Positions 8,469 through 19,175 of a stretch of 22,196 bases of DNA are shown here, piece after piece. Made by a program: the position numbers and the translations under genes. The notes beneath the pieces were generated by a model. It was not told the DNA's origin. It saw only the letters and a program-made list of their open reading frames with translations, and made no database searches. Origin of the DNA: a virus (Duplodnaviria; Heunggongvirae; Uroviricota; Caudoviricetes). Within the stretch, counting starts at the first letter, position 1, and the number at the start of each line of letters is the position of its first letter. The stretch lies in IMG/VR virus record IMGVR_UViG_2703718769_000014. One strand, written 5' to 3'.

Positions 8469-8560
8469 CATACCTTTTGATTTTGTAAAATCAATTCGTA
8501 ATAATAAAGTCATCGGAGCTTGAACAACTCCGGTGACTTCTGCGCTAAACGGGGACGTTT

Positions 8561-8662
8561 ATGCGCACATACAATCCAAACTCTCTTCTCCCTTCACAGA
8601 TGCAGAAATGCACCTGCGATTTTTTGCATCCAGCGTCTGACCTCTGCGGAGGTGAAGCGTGA
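8561..8662 (+). CDS. Small ORF, 33 aa, ylcH-like by position and size
   Basis: ATG at 8561; stop overlaps the GTG start of the ybcN-like gene (GTGA); translation [33 protein letters not shown]. Confidence 0.4.
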
Positions 8663-9114
8663 ACCTACCACAAGATGGCATCAAACTGCATCGCGGTAAC
8701 TTCACCGCTATCGGCCAGCAGATCCAGCCTTATCTGGAGGACGGAAAATGCTTTCGCATGGTGCTTAAACCGTGGCGTGAGAAACGCAGTCTTTCCCAGA
8801 ATGCACTCAGCCACATGTGGTACAGCGAAATCAGTGAATACCTCATCAGCAGGGGGAAATCGTTCGCTACCGCAGCATGGGTAAAAGATGCTCTCAAACA
8901 CACATACCTCGGTTATGAAACCAAGGACCTGGTTGATGTCGTAACCGGCGAAATCACTACTATCCAGTCGTTACGCCATACCTCCGATCTTGATACCGGA
9001 GAGATGTATATCTTCCTGTGTAAGGTTGAAGCCTGGGCGGTGAATATTGGCTGCCACCTGACTATTCCGCAGAGCTGCGAGTTCCAGCAGCTCCGCGACA
9101 AACAGGAGGCGTAA
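8659..9114 (+). CDS. ybcN: NinB/YbcN-family protein, 151 aa
   Basis: GTG-start ORF of 151 aa; [19 protein letters not shown] motif resembles the NinB family; same position upstream of ninE/ybcO/rusA as ybcN in K-12 DLP12. Confidence 0.8.
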
Positions 9115-9284
9115 TGGCTACACCGCTTATTCGTGTCATGAACGGACACATCTACAGAGTACCAAATCGTCGTAAGCGTAAACCGGAGCTGAAGCCTTCC
9201 GAAATACCAACACTGCTCGGATATACCGCCAGCCTGGTTGATAAAAAATGGTTGCGACTGGCAGCAAGGAGGAGTCATGGCTGA
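9114..9284 (+). CDS. ninE: NinE-family small protein, 56 aa (below the ORF-track cutoff)
   Basis: ATG overlaps the ybcN stop (TAATG); translation [56 protein letters not shown]; stop overlaps the ybcO start. Confidence 0.7.
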   Translation: MATPLIRVMNGHIYRVPNRRKRKPELKPSEIPTLLGYTASLVDKKWLRLAARRSHG

Positions 9285-9567
9285 TTTGAGAAAAGCAGCG
9301 CGTGGTCGGGAATGCCAGGTAAGAATCCCTGGCGTATGTAATGGCAACCCTGAAACGTCTGTACTGGCACATATCCGGCTGACTGGATTGTGCGGCACCG
9401 GTACGAAACCGCCAGACCTGATTGCCACCATTGCATGTTCTGCCTGCCACGACGAAATCGACCGCCGCACACATTTTGTCGATGCTGCATATGCAAAAGA
9501 ATGCGCGCTGGAAGGTATGGCGAGAACACAGGTTATCTGGCTGAAAGAGGGGGTTATTAAGGCGTGA
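9277..9567 (+). CDS. ybcO: YbcO-family (DUF1364) Cys-rich putative nuclease, 96 aa
   Basis: Start [23 protein letters not shown]... at 9277 (the ORF track extends it upstream); Cys/His-rich; coupled to rusA. Confidence 0.82.
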
Positions 9568-9926
9568 ATACCTACAGCATCACATTACCCTGGCCTCCGA
9601 GCAATAATCGCTATTACCGCCATAATCGCGGGCGCACACACATCAGCGCAGAAGGGCAGGCATACCGCGATAACGTCACCCGAATCATTAAAAACGCAAT
9701 GCTGGATATCGGCCTGGCTATGCCAGTGAAAATCCGTATTGAGTGCCACATGCCGGATCGCCGTCGCCGTGACCTGGATAATCTGCAAAAAGCCGCTTTT
9801 GACGCACTCACCAAAGCAGGTTTCTGGCTGGATGATGCTCAGGTCGTTGATTACCGCGTTGTGAAGATGCCTGTTACCAAAGGTGGGAGGCTGGAACTGA
9901 CCATCACCGAAATGGGGAATGAATGA
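9564..9926 (+). CDS. rusA: RusA Holliday-junction resolvase
   Basis: 120-aa [29 protein letters not shown]...[31 protein letters not shown] matching recalled DLP12 RusA. Confidence 0.93.
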
Positions 9927-10063
9927 TGTTTGAGTTTAATATGGCAGAACTTCTTCGCCACCGCTGGATGCGCCTGCGCTTATATCGTTTCCCCAGTTCT
10001 GTTTTGACCGATTACCGAATACTGAGGAATTACGCCAAAACCCTGACAGGAGCAGGAGTATGA
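9923..10063 (+). CDS. ylcG: Small ORF, 46 aa, ylcG-like
   Basis: ATG overlapping the rusA stop (ATGA); translation [46 protein letters not shown]. Confidence 0.55.
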
Positions 10064-10148
10064 AGTCAGAGATAACAATCAACTAATACTGTTTTATTGA
10101 TTTTTGCTTGTAATTGGCGTTCTGGTCTGATTTTTGTGGAGTAAGTTG

Positions 10149-10532
10149 ATGCGTGATATTCAGATGGTTCTTGAGCGTTGGGGAGCGTGGGCGGCTAATA
10201 ATCATGAAGATGTGACCTGGTCGTCCATTGCCGCCGGTTTTAAGGGATTAATTACTTCAAAAGTAAAATCTCGCCCGCAATGTTGTGACGATGACGCGAT
10301 GATCATTTGCGGGTGCATGGCCCGTCTGAAAAAGAACAACAGCGATTTGCACGATTTATTAGTAGATTATTATGTAGTCGGTATGACATTCATGTCACTG
10401 GCAGGTAAGCATTGCTGCTCTGATGGTTATATCGGGAAAAGGTTACAGAAGGCTGAGGGTATAATTGAAGGGATGTTAATGGCATTAGATATCCGGTTAG
10501 AGATGGATATCGTTGTTAATAACTCTAATTAA
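10149..10532 (+). CDS. quuD: Late-gene antiterminator Q (QuuD-type)
   Basis: 127-aa product from the ATG at 10149 (the track starts at an upstream TTG); Cys-rich zinc-finger region [16 protein letters not shown]; sits at the end of the nin block. Confidence 0.85.
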
Positions 10533-10565
10533 TATGCCAATTGTTTACTAAAAATTATTAAAAAT

Positions 10566-10583
10566 GGGGCGTTGAGACGCCCC
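10566..10583 (-). terminator. Hairpin GGGGCG-TTGAGA-CGCCCC with a T-run on the minus strand; likely terminator for the convergent porin transcript
   Basis: Inverted repeat seen directly; on the minus strand it is followed by ATTTTTAATAATTTTT. Confidence 0.5.
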
Positions 10584-10671
10584 CAAAAATAAAGGGTAAT
10601 ATATAACAGAAGGTTTATATAGTTAGAAGCAAGGTTGTGCTCCTAAAGGAAGTGGCTTGAGGGAGCCACTT

Positions 10672-10710
10672 ATATGTTGGGGAGGCAAAGCCTCCCGCAA
10701 CATATCTTTT
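10672..10710 (+). terminator. Long stem-loop (about 15-bp stem, AAA loop) followed by CTTTT, between the convergent Q and porin genes
   Basis: ATATGTTGGGGAGGC-AAA-GCCTCCCGCAACATAT then CTTTT; a second hairpin AGTGGCT-TGAGGG-AGCCACT lies just upstream (10651-10670). Confidence 0.5.
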
Positions 10711-10720
10711 AGTAATCAAA

Positions 10721-11803
10721 TTAGAACTGGTAAACCATACCTACAGCAACGATATCATCGGTAGCAACGCCAGATGCTTTCGTGAAATCGCTCTTATCAA
10801 TCAGGTTGATTTTGTAATCAACAAAAGTGGACATATTTTTGTTGAAGTAATAGGTTGCACCTACATCAATATATTCAACCAGGTCCTGATCACCCCACGC
10901 ACCCAAGTCTTTTCCTTTAGATTGCAGGTAAGCAACGGACGGACGCAGACCGAAGTCGAACTGATATTGTGCAACTACTTCGAAGTTTTGTGCTTTGTTG
11001 GCAATATGGTTATTACCAAAAACAGTCATGTTCTGGGTTTCAGAATAGGTGGTAGCCAGATAGATGTTGTTCGCATCATATTTCAGACCAGCTGCCCATA
11101 CTTCAGCATTTTGACCAGATGCATTCAGGCTGTTGTTACCGTAGATAACCTGATTATTAGTGCGGTCAGATTTAGCATAGGTTGCACCTACACCGAATCC
11201 TTCATACTCATAAGTAGTGGAGAAACCGAAACCATCACCATTAGCTTCAGTTACGTCAGTGCGGTCATTTTTACCCTGATACTGAGCAGCAAAGTTCAGA
11301 CCATCAACCAGACCAAAGAAGTCATTGTTACGATAAGTTGCAACACCTGTGGTGCGACCAGTCATGAATACATCTGTTTGGGTCCAGGTATCGCCACCGA
11401 ATTCTGGCAGAACGTCGGTCCATGCACCAATATCGTATGCTACACCGTAGTTACGGCCATAATCGATGGAGCCGTAGTCACCGAATTTCAGGCCAGCGAA
11501 GGCAAGACGGGTTTTATCTTTGGAGGAACCTTGAGATTCAGCGCGGTTGCCTTTGAATTCATATTCCCACTGACCGAAACCAGTCAGTTGATCGTTGATT
11601 TGGGTTTCACCTTTGAAGCCAAGACGGGCATAAGTAGTATCACCATCATCTGCATCATTAGAGGAGAAGTAGTGCTTAGCATTAACTTTCCCGTACAGAT
11701 CCAGCTTGTTACTGTCTTTATTATAAATTTCAGCTGCCTGAGCAGACATCGCCATCAGTACTGATGCAGCTACAGCAGAAATTGCCACTGTTAATTTTTT
11801 CAT
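10721..11803 (-). CDS. nmpC: NmpC/OmpD-type general porin (OmpC/OmpF superfamily), prophage-encoded
   Basis: Signal peptide [40 protein letters not shown]-terminus, PEFGGD loop motif, C-terminal VGMVYQF beta-signal. The track ORF begins 20 codons upstream of the true start. Confidence 0.9.
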
Positions 11804-12228
11804 CGTGAGCCCTTTTTTTGAACTATTATTAAAAAATGATGTCACTGCGCGATAAATATTCATCTAATCAATGTGATTATTTCAAGATGTAAGTTTTGGT
11901 TTCTCATTTGATTTGTGAAGTAGATCTCTATTTTTATCTGAACTTTTTCTATCGAATCCTATTCATGGCTCTTGGCTGAATAAAAATAAATCTATTAGCC
12001 AATTTATATTAATGGCTGTTATTTATAAGCGCTCTATAATTTGAAGATTCAATTTAAACCAGCTAAAAATAACGCTGGAAATTATTTGTTGGTTATTTGT
12101 TGAGATTTGCTTATGTATTTGTAGTGGTGTTTTCAATACTCGGTAGCATTCTCGCAAATATCATTTAGTGGTTTACGTACGTAAAAAATTGGTTATGCTG
12201 TTAAGAGTGGTTACTTCGTCACACAGCT

Positions 12229-12262
12229 TAAACCCGCCGTCGAGCGGGTTTTTCCATTTTTT
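12229..12262 (+). terminator. Rho-independent terminator (tR'-like) upstream of the lysis cassette
   Basis: AACCCGC-CGTCGA-GCGGGTT followed by TTTTCCATTTTTT, about 130 nt upstream of the holin start. Confidence 0.7.
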
Positions 12263-12390
12263 GAGTCTCGATATTAGCTGATAACCCAATACCTGAGTTA
12301 TTCACTGACTCCGAGTCTGTTACGTTTCTGCTTTTTTGCGATACGTTGTATTCCCTCAATTTACACCCGCTTTGTCTGCGAGGTGGGGTT

Positions 12391-12606
12391 ATGAAATCCA
12401 TGGATAAGTTAACAACGGGTGTCGCCTATGGCACCTCAGCAGGTAGTGCCGGTTACTGGTTTTTACAGCTGCTCGATAAAGTCACGCCCTCACAGTGGGC
12501 AGCAATAGGTGTGCTGGGTAGCCTGGTATTTGGCCTGCTGACGTACCTGACAAACCTTTATTTCAAGATTAAAGAAGATAAGCGCAAGGCTGCGAGAGGT
12601 GAATAA
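12391..12606 (+). CDS. essD: Phage-21-type class II holin (pinholin S21), dual-start motif MKSM
   Basis: 71-aa product [26 protein letters not shown]... with two transmembrane segments and a charged C-terminus; the track ORF is extended upstream. Confidence 0.9.
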
Positions 12607-13103
12607 TGCCTCCATCATTACGAAAAGCCGTTGCTGCTGCTATTGGTGGCGGAGCAATTGCTATAGCATCAGTGTTAATTACTGGCCCAAGTGGTAACGA
12701 TGGTCTGGAAGGTGTCAGCTACGTACCATACAAAGATATCGTTGGCGTATGGACTGTATGTCACGGACACACCGGAAAAGACATCATGCTCGGTAAAACG
12801 TATACCAAAGCAGAATGCAAAGCACTCTTGAATAAAGACCTTGCCACTGTCGCCAGACAAATTAACCCGTACATCAAAGTCGATATACCGGAAACAACGC
12901 GCGGCGCTCTTTACTCATTCGTTTACAACGTGGGTGCTGGCAATTTCAGAACATCGACGCTTCTTCGCAAAATAAACCAGGGCGATATCAAAGGCGCATG
13001 TGATCAGCTACGTCGCTGGACATATGCTGGCGGTAAGCAATGGAAAGGTCTCATGACTCGTCGTGAGATTGAGCGTGAAATCTGTTTGTGGGGTCAGCAA
13101 TGA
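12606..13103 (+). CDS. rrrD: SAR endolysin (signal-anchor-release lysozyme, R21 type)
   Basis: 165-aa ORF with N-terminal SAR domain [27 protein letters not shown] followed by a lysozyme-like domain; start overlaps the holin stop (TAATG). Confidence 0.92.
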
Positions 13104-13561
13104 ACAGAGTAACCGCGATTATCTCCGCTCTGGTTATCTGCATCATCGTCTACCTGTCATGGGCTGTTAATCATTACCGTGATAACGCCATTACCTACAA
13201 AGCCCAGCGCGACAAAAATGCCAGAGAACTGAAGCTGGCGAACGCGGCAATTACTGACATGCAGATGCGTCAGCGTGATGTTGCTGCGCTCGATGCAAAA
13301 TACACGAAGGAGTTAGCTGATGCGAAAGCTGAAAATGATGCTCTGCGTGATGATGTTGCCGCTGGTCGTCGTCGGTTGCACATCAAAGCAGTCTGTCAGT
13401 CAGTGCGTGAAGCCACCACCGCCTCCGGCGTGGATAATGCAGCCTCCCCCCGACTGGCAGACACCGCTGAACGGGATTATTTCACCCTCAGAGAGAGGCT
13501 GATCACTATGCAAAAACAACTGGAAGGAACCCAGAAGTATATTAATGAGCAGTGCAGATAG
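13100..13561 (+). CDS. Rz: Rz inner-membrane spanin
   Basis: Start [29 protein letters not shown] overlapping the endolysin stop; N-terminal transmembrane segment and coiled-coil periplasmic domain; matches recalled lambda Rz. Confidence 0.88.
13320..13502 (+). CDS. Rz1: Rz1 outer-membrane lipoprotein spanin, embedded in the +1 frame of Rz
   Basis: Lipobox VVVGC and proline-rich mature part ([21 protein letters not shown]) entirely inside Rz. Confidence 0.8.
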
Positions 13562-13592
13562 AGTTGCCCATATCGATGGGCAACTCATGCAA

Positions 13593-13886
13593 TTATTGTG
13601 AGCAATACACACGCGCTTCCAGCGGAGTATAAATGCCTAAAGTAATAAAACCGAGCAATCCATTTACGAATGTTTGCTGGGTTTCTGTTTTAACAACATT
13701 TTCTGCGCCGCCACAAATTTTGGCTGCATCGACAGTTTTCTTCTGCCCAATTCCAGAAACGAAGAAATGATGGGTGATGGTTTCCTTTGGTGCTACTGCT
13801 GCCGGTTTGTTTTGAACAGTAAACGTCTGTTGAGCACATCCTGTAATAAGCAGGGCCAGCGCAGTAGCGAGTAGCATTTTTTTCAT
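13593..13886 (-). CDS. bor: Bor lipoprotein (serum-resistance lipoprotein of lambda)
   Basis: 97-aa ORF MKKMLLATALALLITGCAQQTFTVQNKPAAVAPKETITHHFFVSGIGQKKTVD... matching recalled lambda Bor; lipobox ITGC. Confidence 0.92.
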   Translation of the reverse strand: MKKMLLATALALLITGCAQQTFTVQNKPAAVAPKETITHHFFVSGIGQKKTVDAAKICGGAENVVKTETQQTFVNGLLGFITLGIYTPLEARVYCSQ

Positions 13887-14176
13887 GGTGTTATTCCCGA
13901 TGCTTTTTGAAGTTCGCAGAATCGTATGTGTAGAAAATTAAACAAACCCTAAACAATGAGTTGAAATTTCATATTGTTAATATTTATTAATGTATGTCAG
14001 GTGCGATGAATCGTCATTGTATTCCCGGATTAACTATGTCCACAGCCCTGACGGGGAACTTCTCTGCGGGAGTGTCCGGGAATAATTAAAAACGATGCAC
14101 ACAGGGTTTAGCGCGTACACGTATTGCATTATGCCAACGCCCCGGTGCTGACACGGAAGAAACCGGACGTTATGAT

Positions 14177-14710
14177 TTAGCGTGGAAAGATTTGTGTAGT
14201 GTTCTGAATGCTCTCAGTAAATAGTAATGAATTATCAAAGGTATAGTAATATCTTTTATGTTCATGGATATTTGTAACCCATCGGAAAACTCCTGCTTTA
14301 GCAAGATTTTCCCTGTATTGCTGAAATGTGATTTCTCTTGATTTCAACCTATCATAGGACGTTTCTATAAGATGCGTGTTTCTTGAGAATTTAACATTTA
14401 CAACCTTTTTAAGTCCTTTTATTAACACGGTGTTATCGTTTTCTAACACGATGTGAATATTATCTGTGGCTAGATAGTAAATATAATGTGAGACGTTGTG
14501 ACGTTTTAGTTCAGAATAAAACAATTCACAGTTTAAATCTTTTCGCACTTGATCGAATATTTCTTTAAAAATGGCAACCTGAGCCATTGGTAAAACCTTC
14601 CATGTGATACGAGGGCGCGTAGTTTGCATTATCGTTTTTATCGTTTCAATCTGGTCTGACCTCTTTGTGTTTTGTTGATGATTTATGTCAAATATTAGGA
14701 ATGTTTTCAC
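14177..14710 (-). CDS. Hypothetical protein of the lambda right arm downstream of bor, 177 aa
   Basis: ORF present at the corresponding position of the lambda right arm as I recall it; AT-rich; no family recognised. Confidence 0.55.
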
Positions 14711-14872
14711 TTAATAGTATTGGTTGCGTAACAAAGTGCGGTCCTGCTGGCATTCTGGAGGGAAATACAACCGACAGATGTATGTAAGGCCAACGTGCTC
14801 AAATCTTCATACAGAAAGATTTGAAGTAATATTTTAACCGCTAGATGAAGAGCAAGCGCATGGAGCGACAAA

Positions 14873-15079
14873 ATGAATAAAGAACAATCTGCTGATGATC
14901 CCTCCGTGGATCTGATTCGTGTAAAAAATATGCTTAATAGCACCATTTCTATGAGTTACCCTGATGTTGTAATTGCATGTATAGAACATAAGGTGTCTCT
15001 GGAAGCATTCAGAGCAATTGAGGCAGCGTTGGTGAAGCACGATAATAATATGAAGGATTATTCCCTGGTGGTTGACTGA
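14873..15079 (+). CDS. Small hypothetical protein, 68 aa (YbcW-like by size and position)
   Basis: 68-aa ORF with Shine-Dalgarno GGAG upstream; present at the same place in the lambda right arm and DLP12. Confidence 0.5.
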
Positions 15080-15243
15080 TCACCATAACTGCTAATCATT
15101 CAAACTATTTAGCCTGTGACAGAGCCAACACGCAGTCTGTCACTGTCAGGAAAGTGGTAAAACTGCAACTCAATTACTGCAATGCCCTCGTAATTAAGTG
15201 AATTTACAATATCGTCCTGTTCGGAGGGAAGAACGCGGGATGT

Positions 15244-15438
15244 TCATTCTTCATCACTTTTAATTGATGTATATGCTCTCTTTTCTGACGTTAGTCTCCG
15301 ACGGCAGGCTTCAATGACCCAGGCTGAGAAATTCCCGGACCCTTTTTGCTCAAGAGCGATGTTAATTTGTTCAATCATTTGGTTAGGAAAGCGGATGTTG
15401 CGGGTTGTTGTTCTGCGGGTTCTGTTCTTCGTTGACAT
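15244..15438 (-). CDS. Small basic DNA-binding-like protein, 64 aa (YlcI-like)
   Basis: N-terminal Arg/Thr-rich segment MSTKNRTRRTTTRNIRFPNQMIEQINIAL suggests a ribbon-helix-helix fold; size matches the DLP12 small ORF upstream of cos. Confidence 0.55.
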   Translation of the reverse strand: MSTKNRTRRTTTRNIRFPNQMIEQINIALEQKGSGNFSAWVIEACRRRLTSEKRAYTSIKSDEE

Positions 15439-15599
15439 GAGGTTGCCCCGTATTCAGTGTCGCTGATTTGTATTGTCTGAAGTTGTTTTTACGTTAAGTT
15501 GATGCAGATCAATTAATACGATACCTGCGTCATAATTGATTATTTGACGTGGTTTGATGGCGTAGATGCACGTTGTGACATGTAGATGATAATTATTAT

Positions 15600-15830
15600 C
15601 ATTTTGCGGGTCCTTTCCGGCGATCCGACAGGTTACGGGGCGGCGACCTCGCGGGTTTTCGCTATTTATGAAAATTTTCCGGTTTAAGGCGTTTCCGTTC
15701 TTCTTCGTCATAACTTAATGTTTTTATTTAAAATACCCTCTGAAAAGAAAGGAAGCGACAGGTGCTGAAAGCGAGCTTTTTGGCCTCTGTCGTTTCCTTT
15801 CTCTGTTTTTGTCCGTGGAATGAACAATGG
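15600..15830. other. cos site: cosQ, cosN (12-nt cohesive end GGGCGGCGACCT at 15638-15649), cosB
   Basis: Sequence ...CGGGTCCTTTCCGGCGATCCGACAGGTTACGGGGCGGCGACCTCGCGGGTTTTCGCTATTTATGAAAATTTTCCGG... matches the recalled lambda genome ends and runs directly into nu1. Confidence 0.9.
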
Positions 15831-16372
15831 AAGTCAACAAAAAGCAGCTGGCTGACATTTTCGGTGCGAGTATCCGTACCATTCAGAACTGGCAGGAACA
15901 GGGAATGCCCGTTCTGCGAGGCGGTGGCAAGGGTAATGAGGTGCTTTATGACTCTGCCGCCGTCATAAAATGGTATGCCGAAAGGGATGCTGAAATTGAG
16001 AACGAAAAGCTGCGCCGGGAGGTTGAAGAACTGCGGCAGGCCAGCGAGGCAGATCTCCAGCCAGGGACTATTGAGTACGAACGCCATCGACTTACGCGTG
16101 CGCAGGCCGACGCACAGGAACTGAAGAATGCCAGAGACTCCGCTGAAGTGGTGGAAACCGCATTCTGTACTTTCGTGTTGTCGCGGATCGCAGGTGAAAT
16201 TGCCAGTATTCTCGACGGGATCCCCCTGTCGGTGCAGCGGCGTTTTCCGGAACTGGAAAACCGACATGTTGATTTCCTGAAACGGGATATCATCAAAGCC
16301 ATGAACAAAGCAGCCGCGCTGGATGAACTGATACCGGGGTTGCTGAGTGAATATATCGAACAGTCAGGTTAA
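15827..16372 (+). CDS. nu1: Terminase small subunit Nu1
   Basis: 181-aa ORF MEVNKKQLADIFGASIRTIQNWQEQGMPVLRGGGKGNEVLYDSAAVIKWYAERD... matching recalled lambda Nu1. Confidence 0.95.
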   Translation: MEVNKKQLADIFGASIRTIQNWQEQGMPVLRGGGKGNEVLYDSAAVIKWYAERDAEIENEKLRREVEELRQASEADLQPGTIEYERHRLTRAQADAQELKNARDSAEVVETAFCTFVLSRIAGEIASILDGIPLSVQRRFPELENRHVDFLKRDIIKAMNKAAALDELIPGLLSEYIEQSG

Positions 16373-17408
16373 CAGGCTGCGGCATTTTGTCCGCGCCGGG
16401 CTTCGCTCACTGTTCAGGCCGGAGCCACAGACCGCCGTTGAATGGGCGGATGCTAATTACTATCTCCCGAAAGAATCCGCATACCAGGAAGGGCGCTGGG
16501 AAACACTGCCCTTTCAGCGGGCCATCATGAATGCGATGGGCAGCGACTACATCCGCGAGGTGAATGTGGTGAAGTCTGCCCGTGTTGGTTATTCCAAAAT
16601 GCTGTTGGGTGTTTATGCCTACTTCATAGAGCATAAGCAGCGCAACACACTTATCTGGTTGCCGACGGATGGTGATGCCGAGAACTTTATGAAAACCCAC
16701 GTTGAGCCGACCATCCGCGATATTCCGTTGCTGCTGGCGCTGGCTCCGTGGTATGGCAAAAAGCACCGGGATAACACGCTCACCATGAAGCGTTTTTCCA
16801 ATGGTCGTGGCTTCTGGTGCCTGGGCGGTAAAGCGGCAAAAAACTACCGTGAAAAGTCGGTGGATGTGGCGGGTTATGATGAACTTGCTGCCTTTGATGA
16901 GGATATTGAACAGGAAGGCTCTCCGACGTTCCTTGGCGACAAACGTATTGAAGGCTCGGTCTGGCCAAAGTCCATCCGTGGCTCCACCCCCAAAGTGAGA
17001 GGCACCTGCCAGATTGAGCGTGCAGCCAGTGAATCCCCGCATTTTATGCGTTTTCATGTTGCCTGTCCGCACTGCGGGGAGGAGCAGTACCTTAAATTTG
17101 GCGATAAAGAGACGTCGTTTGGCCTCAAATGGACGCCGGATGATCCCTCCAGCGTGTTTTATCTCTGCGAACATAATGCCTGCGTCATCCGCCAGCAGGA
17201 ACTGGACTTCACTGATGCCCGTTATATCTGCGAAAAGACCGGGATCTGGACCCGTGATGGCATTCTCTGGTTTTCGTCATCCGGTGAAGAGATTGAGCCG
17301 CCGGACAGCGTGACCTTTCACATCTGGACGGCGTACAGCCCGTTCACCACCTGGGTGCAGATTGTCAAAGACTGGATGAAAACGAAAGGGGATACCTTCT
17401 GCCCGTAA
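16347..17408 (+). pseudogene. A: Terminase large subunit A, truncated after about 350 of 641 codons
   Basis: Translation follows recalled lambda gpA from MNISNSQVNRLRHFVRAGLRSLFRPEPQTAVEWADANYYLPKESAY to ...[11 protein letters not shown], then diverges (FCP*) at the junction with the tail-fibre fragment. Confidence 0.9.
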
Positions 17409-17409
17409 G

Positions 17410-18594
17410 GTGAATGGTAAGGCGCTTTCAGCGGATATAACACTGACGCCGAAAGATATTGGTACGCTTAACTCAACAACAATGTCATTCAGCGGTGGTG
17501 CTGGTTGGTTCAAATTAGCAACGGTAACCATGCCACAGGCGAGTTCTGTTGTTTCAATTACGTTGATTGGTGGCGCGGGATTTAACGTGGGGTCACCTCA
17601 ACAGGCAGGTATATCTGAACTTGTTTTGCGTGCAGGTAATGGTAATCCGAAGGGGATTACTGGTGCTTTATGGCAGCGCACATCGACAGGGTTTACAAAT
17701 TTTGCCTGGGTCAATACATCTGGTGATACTTACGATATTTACGTTGCAATCGGAAATTATGCGACTGGTGTAAATATTCAATGGGATTATACCAGTAATG
17801 CCAGCGTGACGATTCATACGTCACCAGCATATTCTGCTAATAAGCCGGAAGGGTTAACGGACGGTACAGTTTATTCACTCTATACGCCATCAGAGCAGTT
17901 TTATCCGCCTGGCGCACCAATCCCGTGGCCATCAGATACCGTTCCGTCTGGCTATGCCCTGATGCAGGGGCAGACTTTTGACAAATCTGCATACCCGAAA
18001 CTTGCAGCCGCTTATCCGTCAGCCGTGATCCCTGATATGCGTGGCTGGACGATTAAGGGCAAACCCGCCAGTGGTCGTGCCGTATTGTCTCAGGAACAGG
18101 ACGGCATTAAATCGCACACCCACAGCGCCAGCGCATCCAGTACGGATTTGGGGACGAAAAACACATCGTCGTTTGATTACGGAACCAAATCCACGAATAA
18201 CACCGGGGCGCATACCCATAGTATTAGCGGGACTGCAAATAGTGCCGGTGCGCACCAACACAAGAGTTCCGGTGCATTTGGTGGCACGAACACGAGCATT
18301 TTCCCTAATGGTTATACCGCGATTTCAAATCTAAGCGCGGGGATTATGAGCACAACAAGCGGTAGTGGCCAGACTCGTAATGCAGGGAAGACATCATCAG
18401 ATGGTGCTCATACCCACTCGCTGTCCGGCACTGCTGCAAGCGCAGGCGCACATGCACATACTGTCGGTATTGGTGCTCATACGCACTCCGTTGCGATTGG
18501 CTCACACGGACACACCATCACCGTTAACGCTGCTGGTAACGCGGAAAACACCGTCAAAAACATCGCATTTAACTATATTGTGAGGCTTGCATAA
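17410..18594 (+). pseudogene. stf: Side tail fibre (Stf) C-terminal fragment with His-x-His repeat region; no proper start
   Basis: Frame opens right after the truncated A gene; contains repeated GAHTHS / GAHAHT / GSHGHT motifs typical of the distal part of lambda/T4-type long tail fibres; followed by tfa with an ATAATG overlap. Confidence 0.8.
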
Positions 18595-19175
18595 TGGCAT
18601 TCAGAATGAGTGAACAACCACGGACCATAAAAATTTATAATCTGCTGGCCGGAACTAATGAATTTATTGGTGAAGGTGATGCATATATTCCGCCTCATAC
18701 AGGTCTGCCAGCAAACAGTACCGATATTGCACCGCCAGATATTCCGGCTGGCTTCGTGGCTGTTTTCAACAGTGATGAGTCATCGTGGCATCTTGTTGAA
18801 GACCATCGGGGTAAAACAGTTTATGACGTGGCATCAGGGGACGCGTTATTTATTTCTGAACTCGGCTCATTACCGGAAAATGTTACCTGGTTATCCCCGG
18901 AAGGGGAGTTTCAGAAGTGGAACGGCACAGCCTGGGTGAAGGATACGGAAGCAGAAAAACTGTTCCGGATCCGGGAGGTGGAAGAAACAAAAAACAGCCT
19001 GATGCAGGTAGCCAGTGAGCATATAGCGCCGCTTCAGGATGCTGTGGATCTGGAAATCGCAACGGAGGAAGAAACCTTGTTGCTGGAAGCCTGGAAAAAG
19101 TATCGGGTATTGCTGAACCGTGTTGATACGTCAACTGCACAGGATATTGAATGGCCAGTAGCACCTATAGGGTAA
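18594..19175 (+). CDS. tfa: Tail fibre assembly protein Tfa
   Basis: 193-aa [65 protein letters not shown]... matching recalled lambda Tfa. Confidence 0.9.

Follow-up and report, generated by a model that had tools for sequence, protein, structure and literature searches.

Where does late transcription begin in a lambdoid prophage in which a porin gene on the opposite strand separates the antiterminator gene Q from the lysis genes? The question is raised by IMG/VR virus record IMGVR_UViG_2703718769_000014, a stretch of 22,196 nucleotides (the window hereafter) in which the Q gene quuD (10149-10532, +) is followed by a porin gene (10721-11803, −) and then by the holin gene essD (12391-12606, +). 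A first-pass annotation, made from the letters alone, had placed a complete OmpC-family porin, convergent to Q, before the holin. It had offered two alternatives for the late promoter PR′, either near Q, so that late transcripts read antisense through the porin, or after the porin, so that Q acts at a distance from its own gene. The second alternative holds and the first does not. Between quuD and its target PR′ there is, very probably, a self-contained, leftward-oriented porin cassette of ~1.66 kb (~10507-12169), which appears to consist of an AT-rich promoter region, an intact porin gene of the nmpC/lc type, a 3′ untranslated region (3′ UTR) of the ipeX type and an intrinsic terminator. That an nmpC/lc porin lies between Q and the lysis genes, that the K-12 copy is disrupted by IS5 and that the 3′ UTR contains ipeX is already known from the literature; as dated by the papers that cite them, the reports on nmpC (DLP12) and lc (PA-2) appeared in 1985-86 and the ipeX work in 2006.

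The position of the promoter is settled by homology. Positions 12168-12262 of the window align with the annotated pR′ (TTTACG-16-TATCAT), ‘qut’ and first terminator of phage 933W and with PR′ of strain Sakai, and have no promoter DNA homology to phage 21; in 933W these elements overlap and follow the 3′ end of Q. On this alignment PR′ (12172-12199, +) has the −35 hexamer TTTACG at 12172-12177, a 16-bp spacer and the −10 hexamer TATGCT at 12194-12199, and the transcript would start at ~12203-12207. By dRNA-seq and Term-seq, the PR′ start in strain Sakai was located 258 nt upstream of the 3′ end of tR′ (PMC7547250). In Sakai Sp5 the position 258 nt upstream of the T run that ends the second terminator falls 2-7 nt past TATCAT, as expected of a start site. 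Homology between the window and 933W stops at ~10506, in the last Q codons, and resumes at ~12170. The window thus carries ~1.66 kb (~10507-12169) where 933W has the ~60 bp coding for the C-terminal tail of its Q, and the C-terminus of Q933W is ~18 residues longer than that of QuuD. By this comparison Q would work ~1.64 kb from its own stop codon. Late transcription from a PR′ situated past the porin and directed away from it would never cross the porin gene, and there is no antisense conflict. A PR′ directly downstream of Q, with Q-modified late transcripts crossing the porin antisense, is the canonical layout in 933W, Sakai, phage 21 and some viral contigs of each Q cluster. Here, however, it is highly improbable, given that a scan of the plus strand between Q and the porin (10533-10720) found no promoter-like site, that this spacer is the conserved 3′ UTR of the porin, that the homologue of the 933W PR′ lies at 12172-12262, away from Q, and that the homology with 933W breaks at the 3′ end of Q, where 933W has its −35 element.

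The product of quuD (127 aa; RefSeq name) is a Q-type late-gene antiterminator of the Q21/Q933W family. It matches Pfam PF06530 (Phage_antitermQ) over positions 1-118 of 118 (E 3.5e-53), is 78-81% identical to the Q proteins of 933W and H-19B and matches the Q21 structures 6p18 and 6jnx distantly (E 7.6e-7). From the −35 hexamer of PR′ extends a palindrome, TTTACGTACGTAAA (12172-12185, +), centred between the −35 and −10 hexamers, which is a candidate Q-binding element (QBE) on the strength of covariation across phages. For this comparison viral contigs were scanned for the block TAAGAGTGGTTACTTCGTCAC (12202-12222, +), which covers the start site and the initial transcribed region and occurs as an exact pattern in at least 120 viral contigs with differing upstream promoters and cargo. 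The scan yielded at least 120 loci, and 104 contigs entered the comparison of Q type with palindrome, for which Q proteins were clustered at 75% identity. Every locus of sufficient length has a PF06530 Q gene upstream in the same orientation, and across the 104 contigs Q cluster and promoter palindrome pair one-to-one in six classes. The palindromes lie ~17-30 bp upstream of the invariant block (loci L004-L128), with the dyad 23.5-24 bp upstream of it in every class. The QuuD/Q933W cluster goes with TTTACG-NN-CGTAAA (TTTACG-TA-CGTAAA in the window), the other clusters with GCGG-T-CCGC, GCGTACGC, TGTTATAACA, TGGAATTCCA and ATTCG-TTA-CGAAT. A count within the window itself was discarded as evidence: the exact palindrome TTTACGNNCGTAAA occurs there once, but with up to two mismatches allowed chance alone would give one match (63 of 100 shuffles), so that it is the covariation across phages which carries the argument.

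The pairing holds within clusters at distances between Q and promoter from 5 bp to 2.9 kb. Q genes of this clade stand 17-74 bp from the same PR′ in 933W, Sakai and many contigs, while more than 40 viral contigs have the arrangement Q, porin, lysis genes, with the porin on the opposite strand. In the porin-bearing contigs the porin is always on the minus strand and starts ~398-400 bp upstream of the invariant block. Phage 434B carries nmpC::IS5 (2.9 kb) between Q and PR′, and the DLP12 Q/PR′ pair supports its growth; hence such a pair works at a distance. Taken together, the covariation of Q type with palindrome and the viability of 434B with this cassette indirectly support antitermination by QuuD at its cognate PR′. 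It is possible, with chances a little short of even, that the short Q proteins of the QuuD/Q933W clade recognise an inverted-repeat QBE between the −35 and −10 hexamers, unlike the direct repeat bound by Q21. If so, the palindromes would amount to a specificity code for pairs of Q and late promoter, including those that control Shiga toxin.

From promoter to lysis genes the order is that of a lambdoid late cassette, TTTACG-16-TATGCT being followed by a hairpin with a T run and then by the lysis genes. The tR′-like terminator that the first-pass annotation had seen before the holin was recovered by terminator scan and folding at 12230-12262 (+). It consists of the stem AAACCCGC-CGTCGA-GCGGGTTT (hairpin 12230-12251) and the T-rich stretch TTCCATTTTTT, which correspond to ~+24 to +55 of the PR′ transcript. 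All PR′ variants conserve a hairpin with a T run here, including those in which its sequence differs. The first hairpins of 933W and Sakai (L008 666-690 and L004 927-949), and likewise that of the window, resemble strong terminators. In phage 21 a sigma-dependent pause element, TAAGCTG, is located at +2 to +8. The invariant block, TAAGAGTGGTTAC, may hold such an element as well, although assigning hexamers within it gave no convincing −10-like pause hexamer. The 1986 GenBank record of PA-2 annotates a CRP site, AGTGGTTACTTCGTCACA, at what is 12206-12226 (+) of the window (L003 1730-1750). Since this sequence lies within the invariant late-promoter block and is also present in phages without the porin, the CRP assignment seems doubtful. 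The first late gene, essD, encodes an S21-type holin and is followed by rrrD (12606-13103, +), both under their RefSeq names; the products of essD, rrrD and rzpD match PF04971, PF00959 and PF03245.

The porin gene itself (10721-11803, −) is complete and encodes 360 amino acids (MKKLTV...). Its product matches PF00267 (Porin_1) over positions 1-337 of 337 (E 3.1e-153), and residues 24-360 align with solved chains of OmpC, OmpF, PhoE, OmpK36 and OmpK37 (E 1e-137 to 1e-108). The hallmarks of the family are present, namely a signal-peptide boundary before AEIY, the L3 motif LPEFGGDTW (PEFGG) and a C-terminal phenylalanine (VYQF); from its homology the mature protein is predicted to form a 16-stranded trimeric outer-membrane channel. 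The first 23 residues (11735-11803, −) correspond to the 23-residue signal peptide annotated in the PA-2 Lc record. An open reading frame (ORF) of 380 codons from an ATG at 11863 was rejected as the coding sequence; it is merely the longest frame, and the homologues, the PA-2 annotation and the RefSeq coding sequence all start at 11803. Compared with the PA-2 Lc protein the porin is 90% identical, and the 36 differences, two small gaps included, cluster at residues ~181-190, 217-232 and 263-267, three variable segments that are probably surface loops.

Disruption of the ORF was looked for as well, and the gene is intact, with neither IS5 nor a frameshift. The statement in the first-pass annotation that the K-12 gene is interrupted by IS5 was borne out by sequence comparison. 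IS5 splits K-12 nmpC after codon 346, at the equivalent of ~10762-10779 in the window, with 96-97% DNA identity on both sides, and the window encodes a different allele, ~90% identical to K-12 NmpC over 347 aa. The locus thus matches one known for lysogenic conversion (90% identity to Lc, 96-97% DNA identity to DLP12), as the first-pass annotation had proposed in calling it an nmpC-type moron. In a strain with this intact copy an additional porin may be made, with changes in permeability and in the display of phage or colicin receptors. The RefSeq/PGAP annotation labels the gene ‘ompC: porin OmpC’, a name that could confuse analyses of loss or variation of the chromosomal ompC and mislead porin-loss analyses in resistance studies.

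The spacer between Q and the porin was described in the first pass as stacked hairpins consistent with convergent terminators. The hairpins are there: on the porin strand the spacer folds with a minimum free energy of −66.9 kcal/mol, compared with −32.5 ± 3.5 for shuffled sequences (z = −9.8, none of 200 shuffles as good), into five hairpins at 10672-10705, 10650-10671, 10623-10646, 10600-10621 and 10566-10583. The interpretation as a pair of convergent terminators does not hold. The whole of 10553-10720 (−) is the 3′ UTR of the porin mRNA, as it shares 97-98% identity with what follows nmpC in K-12 DLP12 (read via phage 434B) and lc in PA-2, and as the ~168 nt between the stop codon of the porin (10721) and the last U of the terminator (~10553) agree with the 167 nt of ipeX. 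According to reviews, ipeX is a DLP12 RNA that arises from the phage porin promoter within the porin mRNA, and it represses OmpC and OmpF. The same regulatory action would be expected of the 3′ UTR described here, judging from these relatives. Only the last hairpin is a clear intrinsic terminator (10553-10583; stem GGGGCGTCTCAACGCCCC at 10566-10583, then AUUUUUAAUAAUUUUU), detected by both terminator scan and folding, and it acts on the porin strand. On the plus strand the stem is followed by CAAAAATAAA and thus makes a poor terminator for Q transcripts. A long bulged hairpin just past the porin stop codon (10672-10705), next to which CTTTTAG stands on the plus strand, might weakly terminate rightward Q transcripts. 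No Rfam family reached its gathering threshold over the ipeX region or the PR′ leader. A Trp_leader hit over the terminator, the sole match at E ≤ 1 (E 0.4), was dismissed as chance.

Upstream of the porin, 11804-12171 forms an AT-rich regulatory region, in agreement with the first-pass annotation (29.6% G+C, compared with 44.8% across the window). A scan for σ70 promoters found weak candidates only, so that of the two signals expected of a moron the terminator is clear and the promoter scores weakly, whereas its K-12 counterpart, PnmpC, is known from experiment. In K-12, deletion of −199 to −1 of nmpC, or a terminator inserted to block this segment, lowered IS5 transposition of the kind that requires the transposase gene to be transcribed from nmpC, and by 5′ rapid amplification of cDNA ends the corresponding transcript was found to originate from nmpC (PMC11677980). 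On these deletion data PnmpC would lie within the first ~200 bp upstream of the porin (11804-12002, −). The nmpC-essD intergenic region of the window (11804-12400) is 95.7% identical to the K-12-derived sequence.

If promoter activity, Q binding, termination efficiency and ipeX action follow those of its relatives, an element with this anatomy, homology and covariation would operate as follows. In the quiescent prophage the porin would be transcribed from its own σ70 promoter, as K-12 and PA-2 suggest, and its mRNA would end at the terminator at 10566-10583. By analogy with the same two systems, the 3′ UTR of this mRNA would lower host OmpC and OmpF, so that the phage porin replaces the host porins. 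PR′ would fire rightward, away from the porin, and its transcripts would presumably stop at the hairpin ~25-55 nt downstream. QuuD, acting in trans 1.64 kb from its own gene, would bind at PR′, probably at the palindrome TTTACGTACGTAAA, and load onto RNA polymerase, which could then read through into essD-rrrD-rzpD. Antisense transcription of the porin would come only from early transcripts passing Q, and this remnant has lost its early promoters as well as N. With the repressor, N, replication and head genes gone, only residual Q expression and other promoters, such as the σE-like motif at 11820-11846, would be left to drive the lysis genes.

Several points weigh against this picture. We know of no experimental determination of the QBE of the QuuD/Q933W clade, and a literature search found no description of an inverted-repeat QBE for 933W-type Q proteins. 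The −10 hexamer TATGCT and the start site were placed by alignment alone. In the terminator scan of the window no second clear terminator was found before essD, and no further search for one was made. In strain Sakai the PR′ transcript ends at +258, past the homologous first hairpin (PMC7547250); this hairpin may terminate only partly and be leaky in vivo, or the short product may have escaped detection.

Finally, the intact nmpC of E. coli B is called ‘quiescent’ in the title of the paper that describes it, and on that account the porin of the window may be silent under laboratory conditions and its expression is not assured. A silent passenger, that is, an intact porin that is unexpressed, for example through silencing via the AT-rich upstream region, and that confers no lysogenic conversion on this strain, would also be in line with the low G+C content of the upstream region and with its weak σ70 matches. 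We nevertheless regard silence as unlikely on balance, because PnmpC is active in K-12 and the K-12-derived sequence is nearly the same as that of the window, and because both the ORF and the 3′ UTR are intact and conserved across many genomes and viable phages.

A different doubt concerns not the porin but the lysis genes. A motif search found a σE-like promoter motif, GAACTA-16-TCACT (11820-11846, +), which adjoins the start codon of the porin and points towards the lysis genes. From the primers of PMC7918800 (‘−121 to +650’, citing Rueggeberg 2015), the +1 published for the DLP12 lysis operon falls at ~11852-11865, and the σE-like motif may be the promoter of this +1. Motif and primer-implied start make a second, Q-independent route to the lysis genes likely. 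Should the σE-dependent promoter be their main driver, the Q/PR′ pair would be a relic, a view also in keeping with a prophage that lacks N and PR, in which Q has no known strong promoter. We think this quite unlikely, however. Transcripts from the motif would have a ~540-nt leader across PR′ and would still have to cross the hairpin at 12230-12251 before reaching essD. A review names Q as a regulator of the same operon, and it is the DLP12 Q/PR′ pair that supports growth of 434B. Moreover, both promoters can coexist.

With PR′ placed after the porin and addressed by QuuD from a distance, the window can be compared with other late-control regions of the family. The Shiga toxin (Stx) phages 933W, H-19B and Sakai Sp5 share the homologous promoter, the initial transcribed block, the first hairpin and the TTTACG-NN-CGTAAA palindrome. 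In contrast to the window, PR′ overlaps the 3′ end of Q in these phages, and their cargo (tRNAs and stx) lies downstream of PR′/tR′ and is expressed as late genes. Cargo that stands upstream of PR′ on the other strand, as in the window, would be insulated from late transcription. Phage 21 has a Q protein of the same Pfam family and a QBE, solved structurally, that also lies between the −35 and −10 hexamers. Its layout is likewise the same: the first ~50 nt contain a pause element and a terminator (annotated at +3 to +50), and an S21-type holin follows. Yet its Q is only distantly similar to QuuD, there is no DNA homology between the promoters and PR′21 adjoins Q. Moreover, the QBE of Q21 is a direct repeat (ATTGAGCA/AATGAGCA), whereas the palindrome of the window clade is an inverted repeat.

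The junction between Q and PR′ has acquired cargo repeatedly among the scanned contigs, in the form of 0.6-2.9 kb of mostly reverse-oriented DNA of the lysogeny type. Elsewhere the porin is replaced by 0.6-2.6 kb of AT-rich, mostly reverse-strand cargo (loci L005, L012, L014, L016, L024, L027, L028, L046, L048, L055, L059, L094, L115 and L116). Ten of the cargo proteins were tested, three of which match the PADLOC candidate defence families PDC-S20 (PifA-like), PDC-M68A (HNH) and PDC-S42; most have no match. A literature search on a defence hotspot between Q and PR′ found nothing specific. In SfIV a reverse gene of 356 codons precedes PR′, but as another porin it was discarded, its product having no Pfam match. 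If correct, these observations would make the Q/PR′ junction a cargo slot insulated from late transcription. Q-type palindromes and a recurrent cargo slot could together help to assign late (or stx) promoters to the Q proteins that drive them, and they may be more useful than the porin finding itself. For annotation, the late promoter in prophages of this type is better sought beside essD than beside Q.

The element that houses the cassette is a cryptic DLP12-like prophage. Genome comparison found region 9900-12700 to be 100% identical to several complete E. coli chromosomes and present (coverage at least 80%) in 2351 of 5426 complete E. coli genomes, or ~43%. One identical RefSeq genome, NZ_CP069542, provided the gene names used here (quuD, porin, essD). 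In it the window is a ~20-kb lambdoid prophage remnant flanked by ybhC and ybhB/bioA. From the left, its genes are a lambda-type integrase, an excisionase, an exonuclease, a ren fragment, ybcN, ninE, ybcO, rusA, ylcG and quuD. The opposite-strand porin labelled ‘ompC’ comes next, then essD, rrrD, rzpD, bor, ybcV, ybcW, ylcI and nohD, and at the right end a fusion of a truncated terminase with the remnant of a tail protein, and an AraC-type regulator. The annotated genes include no repressor, N, cro, O, P or head genes, and the prophage is cryptic for that reason.

The K-12 DLP12 (qsr′) nmpC locus has the same order, ylcH-ybcN-ninE-ybcO-rusA-ylcG-quuD, nmpC on the opposite strand and essD-rrrD-rzpD-borD-...-nohD, and shares with the window the QuuD protein, the late-promoter block and the porin 3′ UTR. 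The block from the nin genes over Q, porin and lysis genes to nohD (8475-16654) is 96-97% identical to K-12 DLP12 at the DNA level, and the sole break is the IS5 in K-12 nmpC. The two elements differ outside this block. The prophage of the window occupies the lambda attachment site (ybhC / ybhB-bioA), with a lambda-type int at 1419-2489 and its right end at ~21.4 kb, whereas DLP12 lies at argU and has a different int-xis region, different right-end genes and unlike left and right arms. Differing arms around so similar a shared block suggest module exchange between cryptic prophages. PA-2 lc (GenBank J02580) is, like the gene of the window, an intact porin opposite the lysis genes; the two have the same 3′ UTR and are 95.7% identical over 597 bp upstream, but PA-2 is a viable phage whereas the element of the window is cryptic. 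At some distance from the late-control region, a full-length match to Rfam IS009 (218 bits, gathering score 117) lies at 18937-19135 (+), within the remnant of a tail-fibre-assembly gene at 18594-19175.

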